Notes under the pieces: model-generated | What the model saw: the letters and a program-made list of their open reading frames with translations, nothing else | Told to the model about the DNA's origin: nothing | Database searches by the model: none | Made by a program: the position numbers and the translations under genes | DNA from: an uncultured Bacteroidales bacterium | GTDB taxonomy: Bacteria > Bacteroidota > Bacteroidia > Bacteroidales > JAADJA01 | Direction: 5' to 3' | Assembly: GCA_964421215.1 (NCBI GenBank) | Contig: CAYQWA010000041.1 | Coordinates: 1 to 40,708 of the forward strand | Length of the DNA: 40,708 nucleotides | Part shown: positions 8,296 to 27,476 of the stretch, one piece after another | Layout: each line of letters begins with the position of its first letter | Numbering within the stretch: position 1 is the stretch's first letter

Positions 8296-8958
8296 GTGAT
8301 CAGAACAGAAAATATTCGAAAATCCTTTGGGTCGTTGGAAGTATTAAAAGGGATCGACCTTGAGATAAAGAAAGGAGAGGTTGTTTCTATTGTTGGTGCC
8401 TCAGGAGCAGGGAAATCCACATTACTTCATATACTGGGAACACTTGACAAGCCAGACTCCGGCGATGTGTTTATAAGTGATACGAATGTGAATGTGTTAA
8501 ACGATAACAGGATATCAGAATTCCGGAACAGCCAGATTGGTTTTGTGTTTCAATTCCACCATTTATTGCCTGAATTTACTGCACTGGAAAATGTTTGTAT
8601 TCCTGCACTAATTGCAAGAAAATCAAAAACAAAGGCAAATGAAATGGCCAGAAAATTACTGGATTATCTAAACCTTAGCAACAGGCTGGATCATAAACCA
8701 TCTGAGTTATCCGGCGGAGAACAGCAGAGGGTGGCAGTGGCCAGGGCACTGGTTAATGAACCTGCGGTGGTACTTGCTGATGAACCCTCCGGTAACCTTG
8801 ATTCGAATTCTGCTGTTGAATTGCACAAACTTTTTTTTAATTTGCGTGATGAAATGGATCAGACCTTTATTATTGTAACGCATAACAAGGATCTGGCAGA
8901 TATGGCCGATAGAAAACTGACCATTTCAGATGGAATTATAGTCAATGGAAAACCTTAA
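8296..8958 (+). CDS. lolD: ABC transporter ATP-binding protein (LolD/MacB-type, lipoprotein-releasing system ATPase-like).
   Basis: Walker [11 protein letters not shown]-loop, ABC signature [15 protein letters not shown], Walker B VVLADEP, 220 aa. The gene symbol is by family resemblance only. Confidence 0.8.
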
Positions 8959-9021: not shown

Positions 9022-11991
9022 ATGATATTCAGATTTTTAAAAGCAACTATATTTTTACTTACTGCGATTTTATTTTCATCTTTGGTTAATGCACAGGGTG
9101 GTATTGATTACAACACCATGGTTAATTCCGGAGATGACCACTACAATAATGGTGACTACATCAATGCAAAATCTTCCTATGAATATGCGCTAAGGATCAG
9201 GCCTGACGAGGAATACCCAAAACAAAAACTTGATAAGACCATTGAAAAGCTTCGCCAAAAGATGGCGCGGATGGAGGAGTACTCCACTATCATCAATGAG
9301 GCGGATACTTATTTCAGGAACAAGGAGTATGATAAAGCCAAAGTGATGTACCGGCAGGCCAGCACCATCATTCCAACCGAAGGATATGCTGAGGAAAAGA
9401 TCAATGAAATAAAAGGGCGGAAGGAAAAAGAAAGGAAAAATCAAATTGCATACGACGATGCAATATACCGGGCCGATAAATTTGTAAAGTACAGGAAATA
9501 CGAACAAGCCATTCAGGAATACAACAAAGCCCTGGAATTGCTTCCTACGGAACAATATCCAAGGGATAAGATCATCGAGCTGGAGAAACATCTTGAGGAC
9601 CTGGTTGCAGCAAGCAATGAATACGAAGATGTTATCAAAAATGCCGACCGTTTGTATTTTCTGAAATATTTCGAAAATGCAAAACTGGAATACCAAAAAG
9701 CTTCCGAAGCCCGTCCTGAAGAGGAATACCCAAAAAGGATGATTGAAGAGATGGATAAAATGCTGGTCCAGAAAAATGAGTTCGACCAGATCGTTACCCT
9801 GGCAGATGAGTTTTATATCAGCAAAGATCTTGAACAGGCCAAATTGAAGTATCAGGAAGCACTTAAGATTTATCCCAATGAGAGTTATCCTCAGGATATG
9901 ATCGATAAGGTCAACAATGGATTAAGAAAACAATTGGGGAAAGGCGAGATGTATGATAAATCAATTGCAGAAGGGGATAAGTTCCTGGCTGCAAAAGATT
10001 ATACCAACGCTTTGCAGGAATACAATAATGCTATTGAACTTAAGCCCAATGAACTCTACCCTCAGCGAAAAATTGAAGATATAAACCGAATCCTTGATGA
10101 AATGGCGTATGAGGAGCAGGTCTATGCGCTTGCTATAAAAATGGGAGATCAGTATTTAAATGCTGAATCCTTTATGGCTGCCAAAAAGGAATATGAAAAA
10201 GCCCTGAAGATTGACCCGGATGCAGATTATCCCAATGAACAAATGGCCATTGTAACAAAAGCGCTTGAAGAACAGGAAGCCATTAACAATAGTTACAACC
10301 TTTCTGTTGAAAAAGGAAATGAATTTATGAAGGAAGGAAAGTTTGACCTTGCGTTAAAAGAGTATGAAAATGCACTGGTTATTCTTCCTCATGATGAATT
10401 TGCATCTGGTAAAGTTGATGAGATTAAAGCATTGCAAAAGCAACTAAAGGAGAACAAAATCCTGTATCCAGAAGTAATTGCTGAAGCTGATAACTTACTT
10501 GCCAGGAATGAACTATCAGGAGCAAGAGTAAAATACATTGAGGCCTCAAACCTGGATAAAAGTAAGACTTATCCGGCTGAAAAAATCGCTGAGATTGATA
10601 AACTACTGGTCAAACAACAGGAGATTAATGATGCTTATACCAGGGCTATTGCAACTGCCGATATTTTTTATAAAAATAAGGAATATGAACGGGCGAAGGA
10701 AGAATACCAGAAAGCTGCTGATTTAAAGCCAGGTGCTACTTACCCTCAGGACAGGTTAGGTAAGATTGCCTCCATGAAGCCGGATGATATGCAGCAGGGA
10801 GATGAATATACCGAAACCCTTAAAAGAGCTGACAATTTATTTGACCTTCTACAATATGATGAAGCTAAGCTGGCCTATTTAAAGGCTTCCAATTTAAGGC
10901 CAAAAGAGCAGTACCCTAAATATAAATTAGAAGAGATTGAAAGTCTCCAGTCCGGACAGGCAGCAACCATAGCACAATACAATAAATTTGTGTCAGCAGG
11001 TGACAGAATGATGGAGTCGGAGGATTATGATGGGGCAAAGGAGAGATATAATCAAGCTACAGCAATATTTCCCAATGAGAAATATCCACAGGATAAACTC
11101 ACAGAAATTGATCAAATAATTCTTGCCAAAGAGCTGGAGGTGCAGGATAAATACAACGAAGCCATTACCGAAGCGGATGAATTATTTGATAAGAAAGAAT
11201 ATACGATGGCAGGCATAAAATATGAACTTGCGCTGAAATATAAACCCAATGAGGGATATCCTGCACAAAGGCTGGAGGAAATTGATGGCCTTGCTTCTGA
11301 GCAGGAAAAACTTGAGGACCAGTATTCCAGGCTTGTGGCTTCTGCCGACATGCTTTTTACTTCTAAAGAATACCAGGAAGCCAAAACAAAGTACATCGAA
11401 GCATCTGCGTTGTTTCCCAATGAAGAACATCCTAAAAACAGGATTGCAGAGATAAACCTTATCCATAAAGCGGAGAACCAGACTGCACAATCCGAATATG
11501 ATATTGCAATTTCTGAGGGGGATAAGTTTTTTGCTGCCTCCACTTATACGAAGGCTCTGGATTCTTATTACAAAGCAAAAGCATTAAATCCGGAAGATAC
11601 CTATCCGCAGGAGATGATTGACAAGATCCTGGAAGTTTTGGATGACAGGGCCATGAGGAAAATTCAAACATCCAGCATCACGCTTCAGAACAACCAGGAA
11701 GAAAAATTTTCCTTTGAACCACTAGAAACTACCGACAGGAAATCAAGCGTATTGATCATTAGTGCAAGGGGTATTGCATCACGTAGTTTTAAGGTTTTTG
11801 TAAACTTTGGAAAAGGAGGTTCCAAGAACGGTGGATACATTTTACCAATCACTCCGGGAGATTCCCAGGAAGAATACATAATTCCTTTAGGTAAACAACA
11901 CAAATGGTTAACTGAAGACAACAATTGGTTTAAGCTTGTTCCCCAGGGAGGATCGGTAGAAGTGACAGGAATTGAGATTGCCAAAGAGTAG
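9022..11991 (+). CDS. Secreted TPR-like repeat protein (989 aa) with about 15 tandem ~65-aa repeats and a distinct ~130-aa C-terminal domain.
   Basis: Signal peptide (MIFRFLKATIFLLTAILFSSLVNAQ). The repeating unit has the form ..AD.xF..KxYxxAxxxYxxAxxxxPxExYPxxKIxEIxxxL.., for example YPKQKLDKTIEKL, YPRDKIIELEKHL, YPAEKIAEIDKLL. Confidence 0.75.
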   Translation: MIFRFLKATIFLLTAILFSSLVNAQGGIDYNTMVNSGDDHYNNGDYINAKSSYEYALRIRPDEEYPKQKLDKTIEKLRQKMARMEEYSTIINEADTYFRNKEYDKAKVMYRQASTIIPTEGYAEEKINEIKGRKEKERKNQIAYDDAIYRADKFVKYRKYEQAIQEYNKALELLPTEQYPRDKIIELEKHLEDLVAASNEYEDVIKNADRLYFLKYFENAKLEYQKASEARPEEEYPKRMIEEMDKMLVQKNEFDQIVTLADEFYISKDLEQAKLKYQEALKIYPNESYPQDMIDKVNNGLRKQLGKGEMYDKSIAEGDKFLAAKDYTNALQEYNNAIELKPNELYPQRKIEDINRILDEMAYEEQVYALAIKMGDQYLNAESFMAAKKEYEKALKIDPDADYPNEQMAIVTKALEEQEAINNSYNLSVEKGNEFMKEGKFDLALKEYENALVILPHDEFASGKVDEIKALQKQLKENKILYPEVIAEADNLLARNELSGARVKYIEASNLDKSKTYPAEKIAEIDKLLVKQQEINDAYTRAIATADIFYKNKEYERAKEEYQKAADLKPGATYPQDRLGKIASMKPDDMQQGDEYTETLKRADNLFDLLQYDEAKLAYLKASNLRPKEQYPKYKLEEIESLQSGQAATIAQYNKFVSAGDRMMESEDYDGAKERYNQATAIFPNEKYPQDKLTEIDQIILAKELEVQDKYNEAITEADELFDKKEYTMAGIKYELALKYKPNEGYPAQRLEEIDGLASEQEKLEDQYSRLVASADMLFTSKEYQEAKTKYIEASALFPNEEHPKNRIAEINLIHKAENQTAQSEYDIAISEGDKFFAASTYTKALDSYYKAKALNPEDTYPQEMIDKILEVLDDRAMRKIQTSSITLQNNQEEKFSFEPLETTDRKSSVLIISARGIASRSFKVFVNFGKGGSKNGGYILPITPGDSQEEYIIPLGKQHKWLTEDNNWFKLVPQGGSVEVTGIEIAKE
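9100..11650 (+). repeat. Intragenic tandem repeat array: about 15 divergent ~195-nt units encoding the TPR-like repeats.
   Basis: The ExYPxxxIxEI motif recurs every 60-68 codons along the CDS. Confidence 0.6.
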
Positions 11992-12135: not shown

Positions 12136-13359
12136 TTACTCCTCAACCCGTTTGCTCCCAATATAAATTTCCATTTCAGGTATTTTTTCTTTTGATCCCA
12201 TGAGTCCCATCATCATTACCAGACTGGACAGGATAATTACAAAAAACAATACACCTTCGCTGATGATCCCGAGGCTTAACTCCCTGGGTATGGAATAAAA
12301 CAGGAGAATGGTAATTAATCCGCGTGGTGCCACATAAAGTTCCGGGATCAGGTTCCTTCGAGCTAAAAACTTCAGGTACAAGAATCTTAGACCATAAATA
12401 ATTCCAACAATGATCACACCCGTAATTATAATTCTGGCATTGAACATTTTTTGAAGGTGCAGGGTAAAACCGAAAATAAAGAAGAACAGCGTCCTTATCA
12501 AGAATGCCGATTCATTGGTGATGAGCTTAAACCGTTCAATACCGTCCTGCAACTTATCGACATTTAGGTATTTAGCTATTCGTTTATTCGCCCACAAGTC
12601 CAGGTTGTTAAGGATGAGGCCGAAAAATAAGATCATCAGTAAGGAGGAGAGATGCACCATCTTACCAAAAGCATACAGCAGCACCATAACAGCAATCAGC
12701 AGGAAGAATTTAATATTCATTGTTGTTTTATCAATGAACAGCAGGATCAGACCTGATACCACAACGGATACAAGGATCACAATGAAAAAATCTGCGATTA
12801 ACCATGTGGCAGATTGCATTTCAAAAGTTGGATTACTTACTACTGCATTAAAAAATAAGATCCCTAAAATATCAGAGAAAATGGACTCGTAAATGATGAA
12901 TTCCTTTTTCTTCTCCTGCATCTGTCCTACACTGGGAATTGCTATAGCACTGCTGATCACAGCAAAAGGAATTGCATTGACCAGACAGGTATAGAAGGAA
13001 ATATCTTTCATGAATAATTGTAATCCATAGGCAATGGATAATGCAGAAACCACCAATATGACAAGGGCTGAAAAAAATGAACGTACAATGATCCAGAATT
13101 TATCACGCTTTAACCTCAGGTCAAGGGCGCCTTCAAGGACTATCAGGATCAAACCAACTATTCCAAAAAATTCTAGGACCGTTTTGGTGTTCGGTATGTC
13201 ATAACCCATCTGGTCGAAGATTATCCTGGCTCCGATCCCTGTGATAAGCAACATTAAAACCGATGGTATCTTGGTTCTGTAAGAAAGTGCACTGTATGCA
13301 TACGAAAGGATGACCAAAATACTTATCAGAATTATAATTATGTAGGAATTGTCAAACAT
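12136..13359 (-). CDS. Cation:proton antiporter (Na+/H+ exchanger family) membrane protein. The likely start is the ATG at 13359 (MFDNSYIII...), not the ORF-track start at 13383.
   Basis: About 11-12 predicted TM helices. The N-terminal motif ..TKIPSVLMLLITGIGARIIF.. resembles CPA1/CPA2 antiporters. A CAAAGATA -7 box (rc TATCTTTG) lies at 13392-13399. Confidence 0.55.
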   Translation of the reverse strand: MFDNSYIIIILISILVILSYAYSALSYRTKIPSVLMLLITGIGARIIFDQMGYDIPNTKTVLEFFGIVGLILIVLEGALDLRLKRDKFWIIVRSFFSALVILVVSALSIAYGLQLFMKDISFYTCLVNAIPFAVISSAIAIPSVGQMQEKKKEFIIYESIFSDILGILFFNAVVSNPTFEMQSATWLIADFFIVILVSVVVSGLILLFIDKTTMNIKFFLLIAVMVLLYAFGKMVHLSSLLMILFFGLILNNLDLWANKRIAKYLNVDKLQDGIERFKLITNESAFLIRTLFFFIFGFTLHLQKMFNARIIITGVIIVGIIYGLRFLYLKFLARRNLIPELYVAPRGLITILLFYSIPRELSLGIISEGVLFFVIILSSLVMMMGLMGSKEKIPEMEIYIGSKRVEE

Positions 13360-13432
13360 AGGATATAGTTTATCAAAACACAAAGATAAAATGAACCATG
13401 AATTATGCCTTCATATTTACCAAATAAATTAT

Positions 13433-14083
13433 TCAGCCAATAATATTCAGTTCCTCGCCAGGATTGGCAAAAGAAAGGCGAGCAAGCTTGGTGGTCCAAT
13501 AGTAAGTATCAAGACCTGAAGATGTTATGGTGTTCGTTACTCCGAGGTCTACCAGTCCATCGGAATGGACAGCATTTTTTGGTACAATCAATTCAACCAC
13601 TTCACCAATTACCAAAATCGATCCGTTGCTTTTTATTTCAACCTCCTCTTTAAATTTTAAACCGATCTTTACCGGGGATTCCTCCACGTAAGGAGCTTCA
13701 AGTGCGCCTGAGTAATATGGTGTCAGGCCTACAATATCGAATTCTGATTTATCTTCATTTTTATACCTCGCTGCTGTTTGATGAGCCCTGTGATAGAATT
13801 TATGAGTTACATGGTTAACCGTATAAACATTGGTTTCTATAATGTTGGATAATGTATGCCTGGGTCTTACCGGTGTTCTTACCACCATTCCCATCAAGGG
13901 TGGGTTTGAACCCAGATGAATGACTGTGTTATAAATGGCAAGGTTGGTTTTTTTCTTACTGTTAATGGTACCTATGAGGTTTGTGCTTTTGTAACCACAT
14001 AGCGAATTGATCAGGTTGTTCTTAAATTCTTTTTGGAGTTTATTCAGGTCCCTGCTGCTGTAACTAATGTTATCAGATTTCAT
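13433..14083 (-). CDS. Flavin reductase family protein (FMN-binding split barrel).
   Basis: ..LCGYKSTNLIGTINSKKKTNLAIYNTV.. and the overall ~215-aa size fit NADH:FMN oxidoreductase/flavin reductase-like proteins. Confidence 0.55.
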   Translation of the reverse strand: MKSDNISYSSRDLNKLQKEFKNNLINSLCGYKSTNLIGTINSKKKTNLAIYNTVIHLGSNPPLMGMVVRTPVRPRHTLSNIIETNVYTVNHVTHKFYHRAHQTAARYKNEDKSEFDIVGLTPYYSGALEAPYVEESPVKIGLKFKEEVEIKSNGSILVIGEVVELIVPKNAVHSDGLVDLGVTNTITSSGLDTYYWTTKLARLSFANPGEELNIIG

Positions 14084-14206: not shown

Positions 14207-15355
14207 CTAACCTTGCAACTTTTCCATATCGACCTCAAAATCATATGTCTTTCTCCTTGGACAGTAGGGCAAAACCACTTCATCAGCATCATCTTTATAT
14301 TCTGCCTCTGCACAATCGGTTGGATCGCAGCAGGTATGACAAACCCTTTTGTATGCCCTGAAATCCTGCAATTCAACATCAATAGAAAGAAAATCTTCTT
14401 TCCTGGGCTCTTCTCTCAGGAGGTCGGTACTTAAGTATTTTTTATTGCTGTCGGGCAATACAGTTACAACAACAGAATCCTTTCCAAGTTCATTTTGAAT
14501 TTTTAAAGCACCTAAAAAATTTGCACCCGAGGAAATACCAACACCGATTCCAAGGATGCTTGCAAGCTGTTGTGCCATTATTATAGCATCTCCGTCATCC
14601 ACCTGCACTACCGAATCCAGTTTGTCCAGTTTAACGATGGAAGGAATAAATTCATCTGAAATTCCCTGGATACGGTGCTTTCCAACTTTATAACCAGTCG
14701 TAAGGGTAGGGGAGTTTGCCGGCTCCAATGGATGTACCCTGATGCCAGGATCAATTTCTTTCAGGAATTTACCTACTCCCATAACCGTTCCTCCAGTACC
14801 TACTCCGGCCACAAATGCATCCGGTTTTATATAACGGTATTTCAGCTGCCACCATAACTCAGGTCCGGTGGTCAGGTAATGAGCATCCACATTATATTCA
14901 TTGGCGAACTGGCTGGGTAGAAAACTTGCGTCCATCTTTTCTGCAAGTTCTTCAGCCATTTTAATACTTCCCAGAAATCCACCCTCTTCTTTGCTGACAA
15001 GACGGATTTCGGAGCCAAAACTCCGGATCAGGTTTTTACGCTCATCACTCATCCAGTCGGGCATAAAGATCGTGACCGGATGTCCAAGTGCCCTGCCAAT
15101 AGCGGCAACCGAAATCCCTGTATTTCCACTGGTGGCTTCAACGATTCTTGCTCCTGGCTTAAGTTGTCCGTTTGTGGTGGCGGTAGCTAAAATATGAAAG
15201 GCCATGCGGTCCTTAATACTACCGGTCATGTTAAGGTTTTCAGCTTTCGCATAAATTATTCTTTCTTCTCCTTTATAGGTAAACCTAATTTCAAGCAATG
15301 GTGTATTGCCTACTAAACTTGAAAGACCAATGATTTTCTTTTCAACAACTGTCAT
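14207..15355 (-). CDS. Cysteine synthase family PLP enzyme (CysK/CysM-like) with a ~70-aa Cys-rich C-terminal extension.
   Basis: PLP-lysine motif TGSIKDRMA, Asn loop [12 protein letters not shown], Gly loop [11 protein letters not shown], and ..[19 protein letters not shown]. An extra tail follows: ..[27 protein letters not shown]... Confidence 0.8.
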
Positions 15356-15527
15356 GAATCAGAGCTTTAATTGCAATGCAAATAGTTAAATATATTGATA
15401 AAAATATATAATATTGCTTACGCGCATGCACGAAGTTGTAATTTATAAAGTTTACAAATTGGAATCAATGCATTTTGCATTTCAAACTTAATGCAATAAG
15501 ATGATGAAAAGTCGTTATTTTAATTAT

Positions 15528-15535
15528 TAATTTTG
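15528..15535 (+). promoter_or_regulatory. Bacteroidota-type -7 promoter element TAATTTTG.
   Basis: Matches the TAnnTTTG consensus, 22 nt upstream of the ATG at 15557. Confidence 0.35.
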
Positions 15536-15556
15536 CCGTTCTAAAGATACAGTGTT

Positions 15557-17020
15557 ATGGAAAATTATTTCAGGAAATTCAGGGAACAGACAATTGGAAA
15601 TGAACTGAGATTCAATACTCCATACGGGGAACAATCAATGATCTATGCCGATTGGATTGCCAGTGGCAGGTTGTATGAACCCATTGAAGAAAAGATACAA
15701 AAAACTTTTGGACCCTATGTTGGGAATACCCATACCGAAACATCAGAAACAGGAACATTAATGACCAAGGCCTATCACCTGGCACAAAAAAAGATAAAGG
15801 ACCATGTTAATGCCGGACCGGACGATGTTATCATTACTACTGGTATTGGCATGACAGGGGTGATCAATAAATTTCAGCGGATCCTGGGTTTGAAACATTG
15901 CAAGGAAATAACAGGTGGAAATTGTTTAAAGGATCATGAAAGGCCGGTAGTTTTTATTACTCATATGGAGCATCATTCGAATCATACTTCCTGGTTTGAG
16001 ACGGTGACCGATGTGGTTGTCATTCCTCCGGGAGATGGACTGCTGGTCGATCTGGATGTCCTCAGAGCTGAGCTGGAAAAGTACAAAGACCGGAAAATGA
16101 AAATTGGTGCTTTTACTGCATGTTCAAATGTAACCGGAGTTTTTACACCTATCCATCAAATGGCAAAAATAATGCATGAATACAGCGGCTACTGTTTTGT
16201 TGATTATGCCGCTTCTGCACCTTATGTTGATATTAACATGCATCCGGAAGATCCCATGGAGAAACTTGACGCTGTGTTTTTTTCGCCCCATAAGTTTTTA
16301 GGTGGCCCTGGCAGCTCAGGCGTTATGGTTTTCTGTTCCTCTTTGTATAAAAACCCAACACCTGATCAACCCGGAGGAGGCACAGTTGATTGGACCAATG
16401 CATGGGGCGAATACAAATACATTGACGATATAGAAGCACGGGAAGATGGCGGAACACCCGGATTCTTACAGGCCATTCGAACTGCACTATCCATTGAAGT
16501 GAAAAACCAGATGGGTACTGATAATATTGAAAAAAGAGAAAAGGAACTTATCTCAATTGCTTTTAAAGAATTAGAAAAGATCCGGTCAGTACATATACTT
16601 GCTGATAATGTTAAAGACAGGCTTGGTGTTATTTCTTTTTATATGCTGGGAGTACATTACAACATGGTGGTGAAAATTCTTAATGATCGCTTTGGAATTC
16701 AGGTAAGAGGCGGTTGTGCATGTGCCGGCACCTACGGACATTATCTACTGGACGTTAGCTATGAACATTCAAAAGAAATTACGGATAAGATCAATTCAGG
16801 GGATCTTTCGGAAAAACCAGGCTGGATAAGGCTTTCATTACATCCAACCATGACCAATGATGAGCTGTATGCATGTATTGATGCCATTAAACAAATTGAA
16901 AAGAACATTGATTCCTGGTCGAACGATTATGTATATAACAAACATACTAATGAATTCAGGCACAGAGATGAGCCGGAAGACAAAACCATAATTGTCAAAG
17001 ACTGGTTCACTATGGATTAA
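15557..17020 (+). CDS. Aminotransferase class V-fold PLP enzyme (cysteine desulfurase / selenocysteine lyase-like).
   Basis: N-terminal region resembles IscS/SufS (..IYADWIASGRL.., ..VIITTGIGMTGVINKF..). PLP lysine in SPHKFLGGPGSSGVMVF. Candidate active-site Cys in VRGGCACAGTYGH. At 487 aa it is longer than a typical IscS. Confidence 0.65.
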   Translation: MENYFRKFREQTIGNELRFNTPYGEQSMIYADWIASGRLYEPIEEKIQKTFGPYVGNTHTETSETGTLMTKAYHLAQKKIKDHVNAGPDDVIITTGIGMTGVINKFQRILGLKHCKEITGGNCLKDHERPVVFITHMEHHSNHTSWFETVTDVVVIPPGDGLLVDLDVLRAELEKYKDRKMKIGAFTACSNVTGVFTPIHQMAKIMHEYSGYCFVDYAASAPYVDINMHPEDPMEKLDAVFFSPHKFLGGPGSSGVMVFCSSLYKNPTPDQPGGGTVDWTNAWGEYKYIDDIEAREDGGTPGFLQAIRTALSIEVKNQMGTDNIEKREKELISIAFKELEKIRSVHILADNVKDRLGVISFYMLGVHYNMVVKILNDRFGIQVRGGCACAGTYGHYLLDVSYEHSKEITDKINSGDLSEKPGWIRLSLHPTMTNDELYACIDAIKQIEKNIDSWSNDYVYNKHTNEFRHRDEPEDKTIIVKDWFTMD

Positions 17021-17148: not shown

Positions 17149-17805
17149 ATGACAGAATGGTGGGAATCCCTTAGTTCTTTTGAGCAAGTTTTCTGGTATA
17201 TCGCTATACCTTTTTCAGTAATCCTGTTAATTCAGATGATCCTCACATTTTCAGGAATGGGTGGTGGTGATTCTGATATTGGTGAAGGGGATACGGATAT
17301 ATCCGGAATGGACCTGGAAGTTGATACAGATATCGATGTATCAGACATTTCCGATGCCGGTGATGCGACAGATATTGGCGATGTTGACATATCTTTCCAT
17401 TTTTTTACCGTTCGAAACTTTATAGCCTTTTTTACCATGTTCGGTTGGGCTGGCATTGCAGCCTGGAACGAAGGCATGAATAAAACCTGGACCATTACGA
17501 TCGCTATTGTTGTCGGGTTGATAACGATGGCTGTAGTTTCGGCCTTGTTCTATTACATGAGCAAATTGCAGGATGCCGGAGGTGGAATTAAGATCAGGAA
17601 TGCCCTCAATCAGATCGGAAATGTATACATTCCTATTAAAGCAGATGGTGGAAATGTAGGGAAAATTCAGATCACTATTCAGGATTCCCTGCGTGAAATG
17701 CCTGCAATTACAAAAGGAGATGAAGATCTGTCTACCGGAACAGTTGTTAAAGTAGTTGGAATTGTGAGTAACAGCATTCTGGTGGTACAAAAGATGTCGA
17801 AATAA
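17149..17805 (+). CDS. NfeD-like / YqiJ-family inner-membrane protein, partner of the flotillin gene that follows.
   Basis: TM segments flank an acidic D/E/G-rich low-complexity stretch (GGGDSDIGEGDTDISGMDLEVDTDIDVSDISDAGDATDIGDVDI). The C-terminus is an OB-fold-like region. Its position immediately upstream of a flotillin gene mirrors yqiJ-yqiK. Confidence 0.65.
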   Translation: MTEWWESLSSFEQVFWYIAIPFSVILLIQMILTFSGMGGGDSDIGEGDTDISGMDLEVDTDIDVSDISDAGDATDIGDVDISFHFFTVRNFIAFFTMFGWAGIAAWNEGMNKTWTITIAIVVGLITMAVVSALFYYMSKLQDAGGGIKIRNALNQIGNVYIPIKADGGNVGKIQITIQDSLREMPAITKGDEDLSTGTVVKVVGIVSNSILVVQKMSK

Positions 17806-17847
17806 AACTTAATAATTAACTAATACCAAACTTCTAATCAAAACATT

Positions 17848-19512
17848 ATGAATACATTATTTGTCATTATTGCCTTTGTGGTCATTGTTTTTATAATGAT
17901 CATGGCATTATTTTCCAGGTACAAACGCTGTCCCTCTGATAAAATCCTTGTCATATACGGTAAAACTGGAAAAAGTAAAGATGGAACATCCAGATCGTCA
18001 AGAACGATACATGGTGGTGCAGCATTTATCTGGCCTGTAATCCAGAATTATGCTTTTCTGGACCTGACACCGATATCCATTGAAGTAAACCTTACCAATG
18101 CGCTTAGCCGGCAGAACATCAGGGTTGATGTTCCTTCACGATTTACTGTAGGTATCTCAACGGATGTCGGAGTAATGACCAATGCAGCAGAAAGGCTCCT
18201 TGGCTTAGAACTCGCACATATCCAGGAGCTGGCAAAAGACATTATTTTCGGACAGTTAAGGCTTGTTATCGCTACCATGGAAATTGAGGAGATCAATACT
18301 GACAGGGATAAATTTCTTGCCAATGTATCACAAAACGTGGAGGCGGAACTTCAGAAAATTGGATTGCGTCTTATCAACGTTAACGTTACCGATATCCGGG
18401 ATGAATCAGGATACATCGAGGCATTAGGTAAAGAGGCGGCTGCGAAAGCTATTAACGATGCAAAGAAAAGTGTGGCGGAAAAGAACAGGGATGGAGCCAT
18501 TGGTGAAGCAGCTGCTGTTAAAGACGAACGCGTTCAGGTAGCCAGTGCCGTTGCTGATGCAAAAATTGGTGAAGCAACTGCAAATCAAAAAGAACGGATA
18601 CAGGTTGCCGATGCCGTAGCCATGGCCAAAATTGGTGAAGCGGAAGCCAATAAAAAGGAAAGAATTAAAATGGCAGATGCAGATGCCAATGCCAAGGTTG
18701 GAGAAGCAGATGCCGACCGTTTGGAAAGGGTGAAAACATCAGAGGCCAATGCAACTGCTGTAGAAGGAGAAAACCTGGCAAAAATTGATATCGCTAACTC
18801 CGATGCAAACAGAAGGGAAAAGGAAGCTGAAGCAAGAAGGCTTGCTATAGCAGCTGAAAAGGTAAAAGAAGCCGCTGCAATGCAAGAAGGGTATATCGCT
18901 CAACAAAAAGCCGAACTTGAAAGAGCCGAAAAAGAACGTGCGTCACAAAAAGCAGATATTGTTGTACCTGCTGAAATCGATAAACAAAAGATTGAAATTG
19001 ATGCTGAAGCTGAAGCAGAACAAATCAGAAGAATTGCTGCTGGTGAAGCAGATGCCATACTGGTTAAAAAACAGGCTGAAGCGAAAGGTATCATGGAAGT
19101 GCTTACCAAACAGGCGCTTGGTTTTGAAAAACTGGTAGACTCTGCCAACAAAAATGCACGAGATGCAGCCATGCTGATGATCGCCGATAAGTTACCAGAA
19201 CTTGTAAGGACACAGGTTGAGGCCATTAAAAATCTTAAGATAGATAAGATCACTGTCTGGGATTCAATGGGTAATAGTGGTGATAGTACACCAACATCGG
19301 CAAACTTCCTTTCAGGAATGCTTAAATCCATTCCTCCCTTTGATGAGATATTTAAAATGGCAGGCCTTGAATTGCCTGAGTATTTAAAGGGTGTAAAAAA
19401 GGATGATAAAACTGAGGATGCTGTTGCTGAAGAGGTGAAAACTGAAACACCAAAGCAGGAGACAAAAAAACCGGAAGAAGACAATCCGGAAAGCACTGAA
19501 GAACAGAGTTAA
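17848..19512 (+). CDS. Flotillin-like SPFH/Band-7 domain protein (YqiK/FloT-like).
   Basis: N-terminal TM helix, an SPFH domain, then a long Ala/Glu-rich coiled coil with 20-aa repeats (..AKIGEATANQKERIQVADAVAMAKIGEAEANKKER..). At 554 aa it matches YqiK. Confidence 0.8.
   Translation: MNTLFVIIAFVVIVFIMIMALFSRYKRCPSDKILVIYGKTGKSKDGTSRSSRTIHGGAAFIWPVIQNYAFLDLTPISIEVNLTNALSRQNIRVDVPSRFTVGISTDVGVMTNAAERLLGLELAHIQELAKDIIFGQLRLVIATMEIEEINTDRDKFLANVSQNVEAELQKIGLRLINVNVTDIRDESGYIEALGKEAAAKAINDAKKSVAEKNRDGAIGEAAAVKDERVQVASAVADAKIGEATANQKERIQVADAVAMAKIGEAEANKKERIKMADADANAKVGEADADRLERVKTSEANATAVEGENLAKIDIANSDANRREKEAEARRLAIAAEKVKEAAAMQEGYIAQQKAELERAEKERASQKADIVVPAEIDKQKIEIDAEAEAEQIRRIAAGEADAILVKKQAEAKGIMEVLTKQALGFEKLVDSANKNARDAAMLMIADKLPELVRTQVEAIKNLKIDKITVWDSMGNSGDSTPTSANFLSGMLKSIPPFDEIFKMAGLELPEYLKGVKKDDKTEDAVAEEVKTETPKQETKKPEEDNPESTEEQS
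18523..18780 (+). repeat. In-frame 60-nt tandem repeats (about 4 units) encoding the flotillin EA-rich coiled coil.
   Basis: The periodicity is visible in both the DNA and the protein (VQVASAVADAKIGEATANQKER / IQVADAVAMAKIGEAEANKKER / IKMADADANAKVGEADADRLER). Confidence 0.5.
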
Positions 19513-19687: not shown

Positions 19688-20098
19688 ATGCAAAAATATA
19701 TTCGAATATCAACAAGTAGCCATAACGGTCTTTATGACATAACTGCAGAAGTCCAGGGTATTGTAAGTGATTGTGGAGTAAAAACAGGAATGGTAAATGT
19801 GTATGCCCAGGGCGCTACAGCAGCCATTATGATCCAGGAGAATTGGGATGATTCTGTGCAAAGGGATGTAGTTAGTCTTTTGAACAAACTGATACCCGCA
19901 GGAGTCTGGGAACATGACCAGCAAGATGGGAACGGAGATGCTCACCTGAAAGCAGGAATAGTCGGACCCAGTGAAACCATTCCCATTATCAACGGCAAGA
20001 TGGGACTGTCCACATGGCAAAATATTTTCTTCTGTGAGTTTGACGGGCCGAGGAGTGAAAGAAGAATTGTGGTCACTATTTCAAGCTCTGATGAATAG
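19688..20098 (+). CDS. yjbQ: YjbQ/UPF0047 family protein (secondary thiamine-phosphate synthase enzyme).
   Basis: Family motifs ..IMIQENWDDSVQRDV.., ..GDAHLKAGIVGPSETIPIINGKMGLSTWQNIFFCEFDGPRSERRIVVTI.., and a ~136-aa size. Confidence 0.8.
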   Translation: MQKYIRISTSSHNGLYDITAEVQGIVSDCGVKTGMVNVYAQGATAAIMIQENWDDSVQRDVVSLLNKLIPAGVWEHDQQDGNGDAHLKAGIVGPSETIPIINGKMGLSTWQNIFFCEFDGPRSERRIVVTISSSDE

Positions 20099-21679: not shown

Positions 21680-24496
21680 TTATAAATTGTATGTAGCCAA
21701 TGCCTCTCTGGCTCTTTTTGCAGGTTTGAAGTTCACATCGGCATCCTTCCAAATTTCATTTGCCAGTTTTAAATGCATAAGTGCTTTGTCGATATTTCCT
21801 GATTCTTTAAACAGTAAATATGCTTCAAAATGAGCTTTTGGACTAAATGGGTAGTAATTCAGTGCGGCTTCCAGATTTTTTTTAGCTTTTCTGAGATTTC
21901 CTGCCTTACGTTCACACCTTGCCAGATTTCGGTAGGTTTGTTTTCCCGAAGGTGTTTTTTCCAGAAACAAGTTGAATTGTTCAACCGCTGTTTCATAATC
22001 TTTTTTGAATTCAGCAATAAAACCTTCCACATAGCATATATTGCTTAACAACATTTCTTCTCCAAATCCAATGGCCAGTTCACGGGCATCACTGATAAAT
22101 GGTTCCGCCATTTCAGCGCTGTCCACAAATATATAATAGAACATATATCCGTAAGCCGCGGCCTTATCCACCGGAGGTTCAAGCAATTTTTCGTTTATTT
22201 GAATTACTTCAAATGCTGTCTTTTCATTTCCTGCAATAATGTATTTGTTAACGTTGAACATCTTGATCACTGCAATATTCAGAGGGTTATAAATTTTTGA
22301 AGCACCGTCAAGATATTTTAAATAGTATTGAAGGGATAAGGTGGCTTTACCCAGGAATTCATAATAATCAGATAAAGCATTAAGTACTGAAATGCTATCC
22401 TGTATGGTGGGGCATTGACTCAGTAAGTTATGATGTTGCTGTTCAAGCTGATCAAAAATCCCGAGACGCTGGTCTATCGTAAGCCGGGTAAGTGCCAGAG
22501 AAATATCCCGTGGCTCCAGGATCAACGCTTTATCAATGTTTTCCAATGCTTTATCAAACACAGCCATTTCCAGGTATAGTTCCGATAAACAACTGTATCC
22601 TTTGTAATCATCGGGGTGAATCCTAACGTACTGATCATAAGAAATCATTGCAGAATCTGTAATTCCCAAAGCTGTATATAGATCTCCTATATACCTGATG
22701 TATTTACTTTGATCAGGATCAAGCTGTAGAATGGCTTCATATTCTTTAATTGACGCTCTGAACATGTTTTTATACTGGTACCTTGTGGCAAGCATATCAT
22801 GCGCTTCAATATCTTCGTGGAATAATTCGGTCCACATCTTCAGAACTGCGATGGCTTTATCTGATTCCTGTTTTAATGTATAGTAGAAGAATTTTGTAAT
22901 GAATTGCATCCTTTCAGGTAGATTATAGATGATTTTCATAACTTCATTTACTTCAGCTTCTGCTTTGGAAAAATTATTGTTGTTAAAATAATAGTCCATG
23001 AGCTTTACACGTGCAAGAGCAAAATTTGGATCCTCATGCAAGGCTGATTCAATATGGGCTATAGCTTTATCCCAGTTTTTGTGTAAAAGGACTTGCATAT
23101 TCCCTTTAGTGTACTGCTCCAGGGCTTTAAATGACTTGGTATAGATCTCCTCAACTGGGAGGTTTTTTGAGTTTTCAATCTGGAAGGGAGGAATTTTTAT
23201 ATCAATTACCAATTGCTCTGTAATTTGATCGATCAGTGATAAAACATTATCCCCTTTTGTGTCAAATGTAGAAACCAGACTTGCATTTTTAGTCTTATAA
23301 ACTTCTGTTTTAAAGACATAAGTTCCATCGTCAAAAGTAAATGTGCCTGTGATAAAATAATTCATGCTGTAGTACTTTGCAATTGAGTGAAGGAGAAGAA
23401 ACGGGGCATCGATACAATGGTCATAGCCGGCCTCTCTGAATTTTTTAGCAAAATCCCTGGCTGAATTGGTTTGTATAAAGGTGTTTTGTGACAGGTCATG
23501 TTGGATCATCGAAGGTATAGCATATTGCAGCCAGTTAAGTTCAGAATTCGTGCTCGAATTATTAAAGAAAAACAATGCGATCTTTTTCCTGAATTCACTT
23601 TTAACAACCGTTCGTTCAATACTCTCTCCATCTTCGCTCTCAAGGTAAATTTTGTGAGTTGTGGCTCCAAGGTCCTTGTCGTTGAATAAGATAATAACAA
23701 GTAGAACAGATAAGAACGCATTGGCTGGTAATCCAAACAACTCAACTTTCGTCCATCTACTTGAGCTCTTTTTTCCATGGAAATAAGAGAGAAGAATTAC
23801 AGCAGGAATAAGTGATAACAATATTGCCCAGGCAAGATCAGCAATATGAGGGGAAAGCATGTTGTTAAAAACAATGGCAGCTACAGCCAGTTTAATGACC
23901 CATGCACTTAATATGTATAAAAGAAGGATTTGAATAACCCTTCGGTTCCATAGATCTTTGAATATAAATCCGATGGACCGGGAACGTTTTTTAGTAATCC
24001 CTTCAATAAACACTTCGAACACTTCCATATAATCCGACATCCCCTTTAACTCTTTCTCACCGAGGGATTGGGTAGTAATATCAGATTTATTAAGGAGCTG
24101 AGCCTTTACATCAGCAGAAACACAAATCCCATTAGGCGGGGCAAGAGGTTCGATGCGGGCTGCAATATTTACTGCGGATCCAAAAACATCTCCCTCTTCG
24201 AAGATAACTTCTCCGATATGAATACCAGCCCGGATGGTTAATTCTTCATCTTTTAAACGGGTTTGAACGTTAATGGCAAAACGAACTGCCTGGAGGGCAC
24301 TGTCAAACATCATCATAAGTCCGTCACCAATTTCTTTAATTACTTCACCACCATAAGATTTAACCAATGGGAAAATAATATCACGCTGGGTTTGCAGCAA
24401 CTGCATGGTTCCCTGTTCGTTTTCTTCCATACGTTTAGTATACCCAACAATGTCGGTGAAAACGATGGCTGCCAGTTTATGCGATTTATCTGACAT
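21680..24496 (-). CDS. Class III adenylate/guanylate cyclase domain - ~3 TM - TPR repeat protein (paralog B, 938 aa).
   Basis: N-terminal CHD motifs: AAIVFTDIVGYTK (metal Asp), GGEVIKEIGDGLMMMF (second Asp), RAGIHIGEVIF..GDVFGSAVNIAARIE. Then three hydrophobic helices. The C-terminal ~550 aa are TPR-like (..ALENIDKALILEPRD.., ..AEPFISDARELAIGFGEEMLL..). Confidence 0.8.
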   Translation of the reverse strand: MSDKSHKLAAIVFTDIVGYTKRMEENEQGTMQLLQTQRDIIFPLVKSYGGEVIKEIGDGLMMMFDSALQAVRFAINVQTRLKDEELTIRAGIHIGEVIFEEGDVFGSAVNIAARIEPLAPPNGICVSADVKAQLLNKSDITTQSLGEKELKGMSDYMEVFEVFIEGITKKRSRSIGFIFKDLWNRRVIQILLLYILSAWVIKLAVAAIVFNNMLSPHIADLAWAILLSLIPAVILLSYFHGKKSSSRWTKVELFGLPANAFLSVLLVIILFNDKDLGATTHKIYLESEDGESIERTVVKSEFRKKIALFFFNNSSTNSELNWLQYAIPSMIQHDLSQNTFIQTNSARDFAKKFREAGYDHCIDAPFLLLHSIAKYYSMNYFITGTFTFDDGTYVFKTEVYKTKNASLVSTFDTKGDNVLSLIDQITEQLVIDIKIPPFQIENSKNLPVEEIYTKSFKALEQYTKGNMQVLLHKNWDKAIAHIESALHEDPNFALARVKLMDYYFNNNNFSKAEAEVNEVMKIIYNLPERMQFITKFFYYTLKQESDKAIAVLKMWTELFHEDIEAHDMLATRYQYKNMFRASIKEYEAILQLDPDQSKYIRYIGDLYTALGITDSAMISYDQYVRIHPDDYKGYSCLSELYLEMAVFDKALENIDKALILEPRDISLALTRLTIDQRLGIFDQLEQQHHNLLSQCPTIQDSISVLNALSDYYEFLGKATLSLQYYLKYLDGASKIYNPLNIAVIKMFNVNKYIIAGNEKTAFEVIQINEKLLEPPVDKAAAYGYMFYYIFVDSAEMAEPFISDARELAIGFGEEMLLSNICYVEGFIAEFKKDYETAVEQFNLFLEKTPSGKQTYRNLARCERKAGNLRKAKKNLEAALNYYPFSPKAHFEAYLLFKESGNIDKALMHLKLANEIWKDADVNFKPAKRAREALATYNL

Positions 24497-24653
24497 GCAT
24501 TTATTGTATCAGGAAAAGGTTATATACAACCCAAATCTACAAAAAAAGCTTAAGGGATGCAAGCAGGCTTAGAGGAAATGATTAACAATTATACGGCAAT
24601 AATAAATAAAGCAAGATAAATAAAGACTAGTATTAGAAAGTTAAGAAGTCTTT

Positions 24654-27476
24654 TTAGACTTCGCCCAGTTCTGCCAATTTCTCTTTCACATCTTCAGCGG
24701 GTTCATATCCTGGATCTGCATCTGTCCAGATATCATTGGCAATTTGCAAATATTCCCGGGCCTTCTTCTCTTCTCCTGATTCAAGGTAGAGCAGTCCGGT
24801 CTCATAGTTGTTTTTAGGATTAAAGGGATCCAGGTCAAGCGGAATCCGGATATGTTCTTCGGCATCCTTAAATTCTCCGAGTTTTCTGTAGCACCTGGCA
24901 ATCCATCGGTGCGTATCCATGTTTGAAGGTTGCATATCAAGAAATTGTTGATAGTAGGTGATGGCTTCGCTGTAATTCTCTGTTATTTCATTGATTCTGC
25001 CATTGGCATAATGGATATTGGCCAGCAATAGATCTTCTCCAAACCCCTCGATCAATGCTTCTGCCTGTTCAATCTCCTGCATTGCTTTTTCAGTATCTTT
25101 TAATTCAATGTATGCAAACAGGTAGCCAAAGGAAGCAATTTTATCAAGAGGAGATTCGAATTTGTTTTCCATGTCCTCCAGTATTTTAAACGCTCTGTCT
25201 TCCTGCCCGGCCACAATATAGTATCCAATCGTAAAGGCTTGATATACAAGGATGTCTTTGGGGGATTTAAACCTGTTCCACAAATTCATTCTTTTTTCGT
25301 GGTAATCGAGTGCTGTCCGGTTCTGTCCTTTCAATCCATAGAATTGGTGCAATGCATGGAAAACGCTGGAACTGTCTTCAGCAGTTTTGCTTGACGCCAG
25401 AATATTATTAAATTCTATCAGGGCATCTTCAAAATCACCTCGTAAAACTTTTATTCTGGCCAGCCTTATCATGATGGATACTTTACTGGATTCTATCAGC
25501 AAAGCTCTGTCGTAATTTTGCTCAGCTTTATCAAAATCACCCAGCCGAATATATAAATCTCCAATTTCACGGAAGGATTTGAAATCACTGGGAAACTTAT
25601 CAGCATAGAGTTTGTAATAAATAAGAGCAGAATCATAATTGCCGGCCTTTTCATAAAGATCTCCTATGCTTCTTAGGTAATTATATTCTTCCGGATCCAG
25701 CTCAAGAATTTTCTTGTACTGTACAATGGCTTCAGCCGATTGACCTTTGTTGATGTATCTTCCTGCGAGCATTGTTCTTCCTTCTGTATCTTCCGGGTAA
25801 AGTTCCACCCACATTTTAACGACGGCATCCGCTTTATCAGGTTCCTGTTTGACCAGGTAGTAAAAGAATTTTACAAAAAACTGGACGGTTTCAGGTAATT
25901 TGTCCAGGTTTTTTTTATCCATGGCCAGCTCCAGGGTTTCCATGGATTTTTCCGCTTGATTTGAACTGAAATAGAAGTTAGCCAGGGAGAGGTATGCAAT
26001 TGCAAAGCCAGGATCTTCTTCAACGGCCTGGTTTAAATATTCAATTCCTTTAACATAGTCGTTTCTTAAAATTTCGCGATTGGCAAAGGCATACAAACGT
26101 AACGCTATTTCTGAACCGGTAAATATATCAGCAATGGGCAGGTCTCTTGTTTCATCGATATGATATCCCGGTATTTCAACATCGTCTTTAACCTGAATAG
26201 AAATTTCATCGATGAGCTTAAAGATATCTTCTCCAGTAAAATTATTTTCTATCAGCAGTTTAGTTGTTTTTGTATCGTAGAGCTTTGTATTTATTGAATA
26301 TACACCGCCTTCAATGGAAAAATCTCCGCTGAGAAAATAATTCAGATGGTAATATTCTGACAAATTGCTCATTAACGACACTGGTAAACCGATTCCATCT
26401 TCATAACCAGCTTCTTCAAGCTTTTTAAAAAATCGCACCGCCGATTGTGAATTGATATAAATGTCCTGAGATAAATCATATTCAATCATGGTAGGGATGG
26501 AATATTGCAACCAGTCCCAGGTTGAATCACCTGAAATGTTTGTTATGTTAAACAGTGCTAAACTTTTCCTGAATTCACTTTTAACTATGGTTCGTTCAAT
26601 CCGGTCTCCATCTTCATTTTCTACGGTTACACTTTGAGCTGTAGCTCCCAGGCTTTTTCCCTGGAACATTAAAACTACCAACAGTAGGGTCATTGCCGCA
26701 TTGGCAGGTAATCCGAAAAGCTCAACTTTTGTCCATCCTTCCTGTCTGCGTTTGTTATGATAATAAGATAGAAGAAAGACTGCGGGCAACAAAGAAAGCA
26801 AAACTACCCAAGCGAGGTCAACCAGATGGGGTGATAAAAGGTATTCTGAAGATATGGCAGCTACAGCCTGTTTGATGATCCATGCACTTATCAGATAACC
26901 AATAATTACATGAACAACTTTCCGTTTCCAAATATCATTAAAGAACCATTTAGCATCTTTTTTCTGCTGGCCGGAGATACCTTCCACGTATACTTCGAAA
27001 ATTTCTACAGGTTGACTGACTCCTTTTAATTCACGCTTGCCTAGCGAAATGGTGGTTATATCAGATTTGTTCCTTAGCTGGCTTTTTACATCTTCCGAAA
27101 TACAAATACCATTGGCGGGTGCCATGGGCTCAATTCTCGCAGCTGTATTTACTGCTGATCCAAAGACATCTCCATCTTCAAAAATTACATCACCAATATG
27201 GATTCCGGCACGGATCGTTAACTCTTCATCCTTTAGCCGGGTTTGTACACTAATTGCAAATCGGACTGCCTGTACAGCACTGGTGAACATCATTAATAAA
27301 CCGTCACCCAATTCTTTAATCACCTCTCCACCATACGACTCAACCATTGGAAATACGATTTCTCGTTGTTGCTGAAGCAGCTGCATGGTTTTCTGCTCAT
27401 TCTCTTCCATACGCTTTGTATAACCAACGATGTCGGTAAATACAATGGCTGCTAATTTGTGCTTTTTATCAGGCAT
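24654..27476 (-). CDS. Class III adenylate/guanylate cyclase domain - ~3 TM - TPR repeat protein (paralog A, 940 aa).
   Basis: Same architecture as 21680-24496. The cyclase domains are about 80% identical (MPDKKHKLAAIVFTDIVGYTKRMEENEQKTMQLLQ..) and the C-terminal regions are more diverged. This is a tandem duplication. Confidence 0.8.
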   Translation of the reverse strand: MPDKKHKLAAIVFTDIVGYTKRMEENEQKTMQLLQQQREIVFPMVESYGGEVIKELGDGLLMMFTSAVQAVRFAISVQTRLKDEELTIRAGIHIGDVIFEDGDVFGSAVNTAARIEPMAPANGICISEDVKSQLRNKSDITTISLGKRELKGVSQPVEIFEVYVEGISGQQKKDAKWFFNDIWKRKVVHVIIGYLISAWIIKQAVAAISSEYLLSPHLVDLAWVVLLSLLPAVFLLSYYHNKRRQEGWTKVELFGLPANAAMTLLLVVLMFQGKSLGATAQSVTVENEDGDRIERTIVKSEFRKSLALFNITNISGDSTWDWLQYSIPTMIEYDLSQDIYINSQSAVRFFKKLEEAGYEDGIGLPVSLMSNLSEYYHLNYFLSGDFSIEGGVYSINTKLYDTKTTKLLIENNFTGEDIFKLIDEISIQVKDDVEIPGYHIDETRDLPIADIFTGSEIALRLYAFANREILRNDYVKGIEYLNQAVEEDPGFAIAYLSLANFYFSSNQAEKSMETLELAMDKKNLDKLPETVQFFVKFFYYLVKQEPDKADAVVKMWVELYPEDTEGRTMLAGRYINKGQSAEAIVQYKKILELDPEEYNYLRSIGDLYEKAGNYDSALIYYKLYADKFPSDFKSFREIGDLYIRLGDFDKAEQNYDRALLIESSKVSIMIRLARIKVLRGDFEDALIEFNNILASSKTAEDSSSVFHALHQFYGLKGQNRTALDYHEKRMNLWNRFKSPKDILVYQAFTIGYYIVAGQEDRAFKILEDMENKFESPLDKIASFGYLFAYIELKDTEKAMQEIEQAEALIEGFGEDLLLANIHYANGRINEITENYSEAITYYQQFLDMQPSNMDTHRWIARCYRKLGEFKDAEEHIRIPLDLDPFNPKNNYETGLLYLESGEEKKAREYLQIANDIWTDADPGYEPAEDVKEKLAELGEV

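Follow-up and report, generated by a model that had tools for sequence, protein, structure and literature searches.

The stretch of DNA analysed here, referred to as the window, comprises 40,708 nt of contig CAYQWA010000041.1 from an uncultured Bacteroidales bacterium and contains a divergent pair of genes for enzymes dependent on pyridoxal 5'-phosphate (PLP). The minus-strand gene encodes an enzyme of the CysK superfamily with a cysteine-rich C-terminal tail, referred to as the CysK-like enzyme, and the plus-strand gene encodes a class-V enzyme resembling the cysteine desulfurase SufS. The coordinates, strands and lengths of the two open reading frames as well as their divergent layout are exactly as described in the initial annotation, which had regarded the pair as a possible sulfur-relay or thio-cofactor module made up of a cysteine maker and a cysteine sulfur abstractor. 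The two genes and the spacer between them are:

14207 to 15355, minus strand: gene for a predicted enzyme of the Fn1055 type, a fold-type-II PLP enzyme of the CysK superfamily, with a cysteine-rich tail, 382 amino acids (open reading frame; PALP domain, E-value 6e-72)
15557 to 17020, plus strand: gene for a SufS-like (group II) class-V PLP enzyme, 487 amino acids (open reading frame; Aminotran_5 domain, E-value 4e-43)
15356 to 15556, no strand: divergent intergenic spacer of 201 bp with five AATGCA/TGCATT words

For the CysK-like enzyme, an alignment of 64 close homologues with 71–83% identity was used, and its gene neighbourhoods were surveyed in the loci of 80 species representatives with 63–76% identity, 79 of which were complete. 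The scan patterns with which these loci were gathered included IQGISDEF. A second neighbourhood survey was centred on the class-V enzyme and covered 80 metagenome loci, which were screened for homologues of the window genes only, so that SufE and SufU are not detectable in it. The adjacency counts given below cover the flanks of the loci, and the statistics ignore the kinship between them.

Family and active site of the CysK-like enzyme

The PALP domain (PF00291) spans residues 12–302 of the CysK-like enzyme. The enzyme has the PLP lysine K48 (SIKDR), the TSGNTG loop (T75–G80), the GVGTGGT segment (G184–T190) and the GISSGAN segment, all of them unchanged throughout the homologues, in agreement with the core PLP and substrate motifs reported before for a CysK/CysM-type enzyme. 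The curated NCBIfam cut-offs of this family are nevertheless all missed, with 315 bits as opposed to 344 bits for cysKM (TIGR01136), 305 bits as opposed to 351 bits for cysK (TIGR01139) and 244 bits as opposed to 394 bits for cysM (TIGR01138). The closest solved structures are 5B53, 5B55 and 5Z5C with an E-value of 1.5e-134, compared with 1e-69 for the best canonical CysK.

The structure 5B53 is that of Fn1055 from Fusobacterium nucleatum (PMC9865163; also PDB titles), a cysteine (hydroxyl) lyase which converts L-cysteine and water to L-serine and H2S, and whose key residues are Thr73, Ser74, Gln147 and Asp232 (PMC12940168; PMC9600241). The CysK-like enzyme shares 63% identity with it across 334 aligned residues, and the AlphaFold model superposes on the Fn1055 structure with a template modelling (TM) score of 0.94–0.95. 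With the chains offset by a constant +4 versus 5B53, the four key residues correspond to T75, S76, Q149 and D234, which are invariant in 64 of 64 homologues, and the D234 column is precisely where the chain of the D232N mutant (5B55) departs from the wild type. In canonical CysK, the positions of D234 and E235 are occupied by Ala-Gly (GISAGF in 9JXU, GIGAGF in 2EGU), whereas the CysK-like enzyme reads GISDEF. The codons of these active-site positions are:

15212 to 15214, minus strand: K48, the PLP Schiff-base lysine (SIKDR), invariant, translation checked
15128 to 15133, minus strand: T75 and S76, equivalent to T73 and S74 of Fn1055, in the substrate loop TSGNTG, invariant in 64 of 64
14654 to 14656, minus strand: D234, equivalent to Asp232 of Fn1055, which sets cysteine (hydroxyl) lyase apart from CysK (GISDEF column)

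Because of the high identity and the common fold with Fn1055, the mapped catalytic residues, the presence of D234 and the missed CysK cut-offs, the CysK-like enzyme is assigned, as far as sequence and fold can tell, to the Fn1055 type and not to the CysK/CysM equivalogs. Its description as a cysteine maker is therefore doubtful, as the nearest characterised enzyme releases H2S from cysteine and the diagnostic Asp232 of this enzyme is kept as D234. The predicted reaction of the CysK-like enzyme is a beta-replacement on cysteine or serine, with sulfide or water as the incoming group (L-Cys + H2O <-> L-Ser + H2S). The reaction of the Fn1055 type is reversible in principle, and the enzyme may make or degrade cysteine in sulfidic anaerobes.

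The cysteine-rich C-terminal tail

Alignments with canonical CysK end at residue ~312–314, which leaves an extension of ~68–70 amino acids in the CysK-like enzyme. It contains the five cysteines C339, C342, C343, C348 and C365, and the tail thus has the length and the cysteine content that were noted initially. Along the extension, the following parts can be distinguished:

14342 to 14419, minus strand: residues 313–338, the first part of the extension, ordered and common with Fn1055 (5B53 alignment up to residue 338; predicted local distance difference test score, pLDDT, 74–95)
14252 to 14350, minus strand: residues 336–368, the conserved cysteine motif ending in LPYCPRR, with C339, C342, C343, C348 and C365 invariant in the 64 homologues
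14210 to 14251, minus strand: residues 369–382, the variable extreme C-terminus, conserved neither in length nor in sequence

The motif follows the pattern KRVCxTCCDPxxCxE...LPxCPRR with a cysteine spacing of C-x2-C-C-x4-C-x(13-18)-C-P, in which the distal cysteine is usually followed by proline. In addition to the five cysteines, K336, R337, P345, E350 and P363 are invariant in the 64 homologues, while R367 and R368 are nearly invariant. The full five-cysteine tail is present in 61 of the 79 complete species loci, another eight retain only the CxxCCxxxxC core, and the tail is degenerate in the remaining ten. Tail carriers, the orthologues of which are 63–84% identical, were found in more than ten phyla and include Bacteroidota, Chlorobiota/Ignavibacteria, Acidobacteriota, Aminicenantes, Krumholzibacteria, Gemmatimonadota, Elusimicrobia, Desulfobacteraceae, Anaerolineales, Bipolaricaulota and others, and these lineages are mostly anaerobic. 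Cultured bacteria with the tail-bearing enzyme are Marinifilum caeruleilacunae JC070, Labilibaculum filiforme 59.16B and Carboxylicivirga sediminis JR1. The CysK-like family as a whole comprises at least 585 confirmed stretches, i.e., several hundred species representatives or more. A tail-bearing CysK-like protein with 69% identity is also encoded on a contig that was assigned by binning to a Thermoplasmatota archaeon (L006), either by horizontal transfer or owing to a binning error.

A meaningless read-through or an annotation artefact, which the low AlphaFold confidence for the tail would be consistent with, is hardly credible and already refuted by the five invariant cysteines and the flanking KR and RR residues that are kept in 63–84% identical orthologues from more than ten phyla; the tail is conserved in a large clade and is no lineage-specific read-through. 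The initial annotation had also raised the question of whether the tail is a recurring fused domain. A search with a tail-only profile in 1.84 billion representatives yielded 46 matches, and all of those inspected were C-terminal fragments or assembly chimeras of the same CysK-like family, with no other architecture and no stand-alone protein among them. Since there was also no match of the tail in Pfam, even at E-values up to 10, an independent mobile domain was rejected. Literature searches returned no description of a cysteine-rich C-terminal extension of CysK or O-acetylserine sulfhydrylase (OASS). Three giant proteins of 1593–5253 amino acids (P0122, P0126, P0165) contain 5–13 matches each to the CxxCC...C core of the tail-only profile and are presumably unrelated cysteine-rich repeat proteins.

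Variants in which C343 is replaced by phenylalanine (CxxCF, L037) or histidine (CxxCH, L046) keep the other four cysteines. For this reason, C339, C342, C348 and C365 probably form the candidate four-thiolate site for zinc or an iron-sulfur (Fe-S) cluster that the motif suggests, and C343 would be an additional thiol. As Fn1055 is active in the absence of a tail and as the tail has decayed in some lineages, we infer that it is an accessory element outside the catalytic core, with a structural, regulatory or sulfur-handling role. A metal site in the tail would serve as a structural or a redox- or sulfide-responsive appendage.

With somewhat better than even confidence, the locus is interpreted here as encoding an Fn1055-type enzyme with an accessory metal-site tail, accompanied by a loosely linked SufS-like paralogue and without forming an obligate module. 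Several observations weigh against this interpretation. GISDEF was found in 80 of 80 loci, but this count is biased because IQGISDEF was itself a scan pattern. The missing Pfam match means that no curated metal-binding domain is recognised in the tail. The AlphaFold model, which had been suggested as a check for a metal site, gives a pLDDT of only 49–60 for residues 340–382, so that the metal site is without structural support. In three loci of Aminicenantes (L044, L054, L071), the tail-bearing CysK-like gene has a gene for cysteinyl-tRNA synthetase (CysRS) at a distance of up to 4 kb, a hint that the enzyme supplies cysteine in this lineage rather than degrading it.

The adjoining CysRS gene would also fit an ordinary O-acetylserine or O-phosphoserine sulfhydrylase of anaerobes, in which the tail would act as an oxidation-triggered redox or disulfide off-switch and the desulfurase neighbour would be coincidental. 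The source annotation as a cysteine synthase family member, the complete set of OASS core motifs and the mostly anaerobic, sulfidic taxa are in line with such an assimilatory enzyme. We nevertheless consider it rather unlikely, as the scores lie under the cysK, cysM and cysKM cut-offs, the Asp of Fn1055 replaces the Ala/Gly of CysK, and a serine acetyltransferase gene (cysE) neither recurs in the 80 CysK-like neighbourhoods nor occurs in the window, in which suf and isc genes were not found either. Returning to the Fn1055-type enzyme with an accessory tail, a tail with a bound Fe-S cluster or a persulfide would give this widespread clade of anaerobes the first built-in site of the CysK superfamily for sensing redox state or sulfide or for accepting sulfur, and wherever the SufS-like gene adjoins, the two proteins would together provide a compact, Suf/Isc-independent route of sulfur mobilisation; this extension of the interpretation is speculative and is given a low probability.

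The SufS-like neighbour, the gene pairing and the divergent spacer

In the class-V enzyme, the Aminotran_5 domain (PF00266) spans residues 29–437. The earlier classification as NifS/SufS-like holds, since the lysine of SPHKF (K246) and the cysteines of RGGCACAG are present, the fold is of the SufS type, and C389 was aligned by HMMER with the catalytic cysteine of Bacillus subtilis SufS (RAGHHCAQ). The corresponding codons are:

16292 to 16294, plus strand: K246, the PLP lysine (SPHKF), invariant
16715 to 16723, plus strand: C387-A388-C389, with C389 at the position of the catalytic cysteine of SufS

In homologues with as little as 53% identity, K246 and both cysteines of RGGCxCAGTYGH are still invariant, the cysteines over a range of 53–86% identity. 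Every one of the 50 best fold matches is a SufS/CsdB-type desulfurase or a selenocysteine lyase, with a TM score of ~0.8 and 20–23% identity. The best NCBIfam match is sufS (TIGR01979), reached with 146 bits as opposed to a cut-off of 475 bits, and PRK09295 gives 89 bits as opposed to 661 bits. Residues 267–301 (window 16355–16459), PDQPGGGTVDWTNAWGEYKYIDDIEAREDGGTP, form a family-specific insert that is nearly invariant and has an AlphaFold pLDDT of ~30. This insert lies near the beta-hairpin region of SufS. The class-V enzyme represents a distinct, uncharacterised SufS-like family, for which we infer desulfurase activity; with the fold and the catalytic cysteine in place, the gene would encode a SufS-like paralogue of the group-II cysteine desulfurases. 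Enzymes of this group normally require a dedicated acceptor. No gene for SufE, SufU, SufBCD or another acceptor was found in the window or in the gene tables of L081–L083, L087 and L092.

Within the flanks of the 80 CysK-like-centred species loci, a full-length class-V orthologue (53–73% identity) was found in 11 loci from three phyla, compared with ~0.4 loci expected under random placement according to our own estimate. The two genes are directly adjacent in eight of these loci, where the class-V gene lies upstream and co-directional (L004, L007, L009, L053), downstream and co-directional (L059, L064), divergent (L015) or convergent (L019), and they are 0.8–6 kb apart in the other three, which amounts to at least five arrangements of the gene order. 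In the class-V-centred survey, a CysK-like gene was found in only three of the 80 metagenome loci, two of which contain a decayed remnant, and three class-V orthologues lie on megabase contigs without a CysK-like gene. Among six close relatives of the CysK-like protein (73–83% identity), the divergent pair is kept in L092 and L087 and absent in L084, L085, L088/L089 and L090/L091. Tail completeness does not track adjacency, with a full tail in ten of the 11 loci with a class-V neighbour and in 61 of 79 overall. In L160 (6467–7032), and also in L161, the CysK-like gene has decayed into a middle fragment and a C-terminal fragment with an intact cysteine tail. The fragments of L160 are convergent with an intact class-V gene, and a Crp/Fnr-like regulator and MetK are encoded nearby.

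The pair is thus an occasional arrangement and not an obligate one, and the idea of a dedicated module, which was to stand or fall with the conservation of the pairing in related genomes, is weak. A loose functional or selective link between the two genes is likely, since both enzymes act on cysteine or sulfide and the adjacency is above chance. A dedicated relay would go further: the SufS-like enzyme would hand its persulfide to the cysteine tail of the CysK-like enzyme, which would take over the role of SufE, SufU or CsdE, and the sulfur would then pass to a thio-cofactor or an Fe-S product. The absence of a SufE/SufU-like gene beside the class-V gene in the gene tables examined, an adjacency that recurs in at least five gene orders and three phyla, and the extra thiol C343, which is dispensable to the four-ligand site and could be reactive, speak for such a relay. 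It is nonetheless improbable, because the partner is absent from the flanks in 69 of the 80 CysK-like loci and 77 of the 80 class-V loci, the pair is missing in four of the six close relatives, the tail is no more complete beside a class-V gene, and an intact class-V gene stands beside a decayed CysK-like gene in L160; moreover, remaking cysteine from cysteine sulfur would be a futile cycle.

The head-to-head layout itself looks like the result of a lineage-specific block insertion upstream of the class-V gene. In many relatives (L082, L095, L097, L100, L102 and others), the class-V gene directly follows the genes of an ATP-binding cassette (ABC) ATPase and a large tetratricopeptide repeat (TPR) protein, the homologues of which in the window are the open reading frames 8296–8958 and 9022–11991. 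In the window, by contrast, a minus-strand block consisting of a Na/H exchanger (12136–13383), a flavin reductase (13433–14083) and the CysK-like gene separates the TPR gene from the class-V gene, and the insertion of this block would have created the divergent layout. In L095, the exchanger is present and the CysK-like gene absent. The flavin reductase and the Na/H exchanger were rejected as members of a unit, as they occur near the CysK-like gene in none of the 80 species loci and represent local synteny with close relatives only. With 14 loci, a PglZ response regulator seemed to be a recurrent neighbour of the CysK-like gene, but this proved to be a single-linkage artefact of receiver domains with only two real matches. 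Apart from YjbQ in three Elusimicrobia loci, no other recurrent neighbour of the CysK-like gene held up in the 80-locus survey.

The spacer had been described as a shared control region rich in AATGCA/TGCATT words. The features considered here are:

15375, 15467, 15469, 15476 and 15490, in the spacer: AATGCA/TGCATT words, locally enriched
15528 to 15535, plus strand: TAATTTTG, which fits the -7 promoter consensus of Bacteroidetes and lies 21 nt ahead of the ATG of the class-V gene, a position in which it is conserved in L092 and L093

The local enrichment is real: the spacer contains five of the 40 words of the 40.7-kb window and is its densest 201-bp stretch, and in dinucleotide-preserving shuffles of the spacer, for a word picked post hoc, the mean is 0.94 words and only 0.2% of the shuffles reach five. 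The words are not conserved, as the syntenic spacers of L092, L087, L015 and L093 contain 0–1 copies each. Two positions had to be corrected, since AATGCATTTTGCATT is located at 15467–15481 and not at 15470–15484, and GCATGC at 15424–15429. Operator sites for a regulator that co-controls both divergent genes would account for five words in 201 bp and for the position of three of them between two putative promoters. Such a function is improbable, as the words are nearly or fully missing in the four syntenic spacers, the word was picked after seeing the sequence, and no Rfam element was found in the spacer. A riboswitch or another RNA element in the spacer or its flanks was rejected, as no Rfam family was detected there and the sole Rfam match was a chance long non-coding RNA with an E-value of 0.33.

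The Bacteroidetes -7 promoter consensus is TAnnTTTG, and the TAATTTTG box is accordingly named here, from its sequence and position, a putative promoter element of the class-V gene. Conservation also extends to an AT-rich box ~45 nt upstream of the start codon of the CysK-like gene. The upstream motif comparison across the CysK-like family yielded promoter-like AT-rich boxes and one 17-mer common with a single relative, and nothing else. Relative to the start codon of the CysK-like gene, the element TTTGTAAA[C/G]TTTATAAA (window 15441–15465) is located at -103/-102 both here and in L090, which is without a class-V gene, and a weaker form is present in L093; the element may belong to a promoter or an operator. 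Searches for intrinsic terminators and sigma-70 promoters gave only weak consensus matches near the shuffle expectation, and no convincing terminator was found downstream of the CysK-like or the class-V gene.

Further genes of the window lie downstream of the class-V gene. A UPF0047/YjbQ gene (19688–20098) has homologues directly downstream of the class-V gene in the close relatives L092, L093 and L095, and in three loci of Elusimicrobia without the class-V gene (L050, L058, L079), YjbQ directly follows the CysK-like gene, making it a second recurrent neighbour. Between the class-V gene and YjbQ, the window contains the genes of a membrane protein of 218 amino acids without a Pfam match and of an SPFH/flotillin protein of 554 amino acids (17149–19512). 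Both occur at the same place in L087 and L094 and are absent there in L092 and L093, which suggests another small insertion. The region 21680–27476 contains two tandem paralogous genes for proteins of ~940 amino acids, in which an N-terminal adenylate/guanylate cyclase domain is followed by many TPR repeats.

Significance and comparison with known systems

What is new at this locus is the conserved, previously undescribed cysteine motif on a widespread clade of the Fn1055 type; the kind of enzyme itself is known, and the gene pairing is no conserved system. Fn1055-type enzymes are tallied as H2S producers in surveys of the oral and gut microbiome, while most databases list them as cysteine synthase. 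Most environmental members bear the five-cysteine motif, which is absent from the sole characterised and crystallised member, and for this reason the biochemistry of Fn1055 or CysK is not simply transferable to the tail-bearing enzymes, be it the cofactor content, the regulation or the physiological direction of the reaction. As an Fe-S site or a sulfur relay, the tail would be a new regulatory or trafficking element in the cysteine and sulfide metabolism of anaerobic sediment and gut bacteria, whereas a structural zinc site would amount to a modest refinement of the annotation.

Among known cysteine motifs, the tail resembles the four-cysteine sites of WhiB-type proteins and assimilatory adenosine 5'-phosphosulfate (APS) reductases. 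WhiB-type proteins bind a [4Fe-4S] cluster through the motif Cx(n)CxxCx5C, and in assimilatory APS reductase the [4Fe-4S] cluster is ligated by a tandem Cys-Cys. The spacing C339-x2-C342-x5-C348, the distal Cys-Pro and the tandem CC of the tail recall these sites, as does the association with sulfur metabolism and anaerobes. There is no detectable homology, however, and the order of the ligands in the tail is the mirror image of that in WhiB.

The class-V enzyme shares with the group-II desulfurases SufS and CsdB (B. subtilis SufS, 5J8Q; E. coli SufS, 1JF9) the fold (TM ~0.8), the PLP lysine and the catalytic cysteine in an R-x-G-x-x-C-A loop. It differs from them in its low identity (20–23%) and sufS score (146 versus 475 bits), in being ~80 residues longer, in the invariant C-x-C (RGGCACAGTYGH) and the long insert 267–301, and in the lack of nearby suf genes or SufE/SufU in the window and in L081–L083, L087 and L092.

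With canonical CysK and CysM (TIGR01139, TIGR01138), the CysK-like enzyme has the PALP fold, the PLP lysine, the TSGNTG loop, the glycine-rich phosphate loop and GISSGAN in common, and the solved CysK structures are 36–43% identical to it. It is set apart from them by scores under the curated cut-offs, by GISDEF in place of GI[SG]AGF, by ~70 extra C-terminal residues and by a gene without a neighbouring cysE.

The closest known system is Fn1055 (CysK2; 5B53, 5B55, 5Z5C), to which the CysK-like enzyme is linked by 63% identity, a fold similarity of TM 0.94–0.95, the four catalytic residues including Asp232 (D234) and an ordered extension of ~25 residues past the C-terminus of CysK that is common to both. 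The chain of Fn1055, which is without the cysteine motif, stops at ...LRV, where the CysK-like enzyme runs on into this motif, and the tail-bearing form is spread across many environmental phyla.

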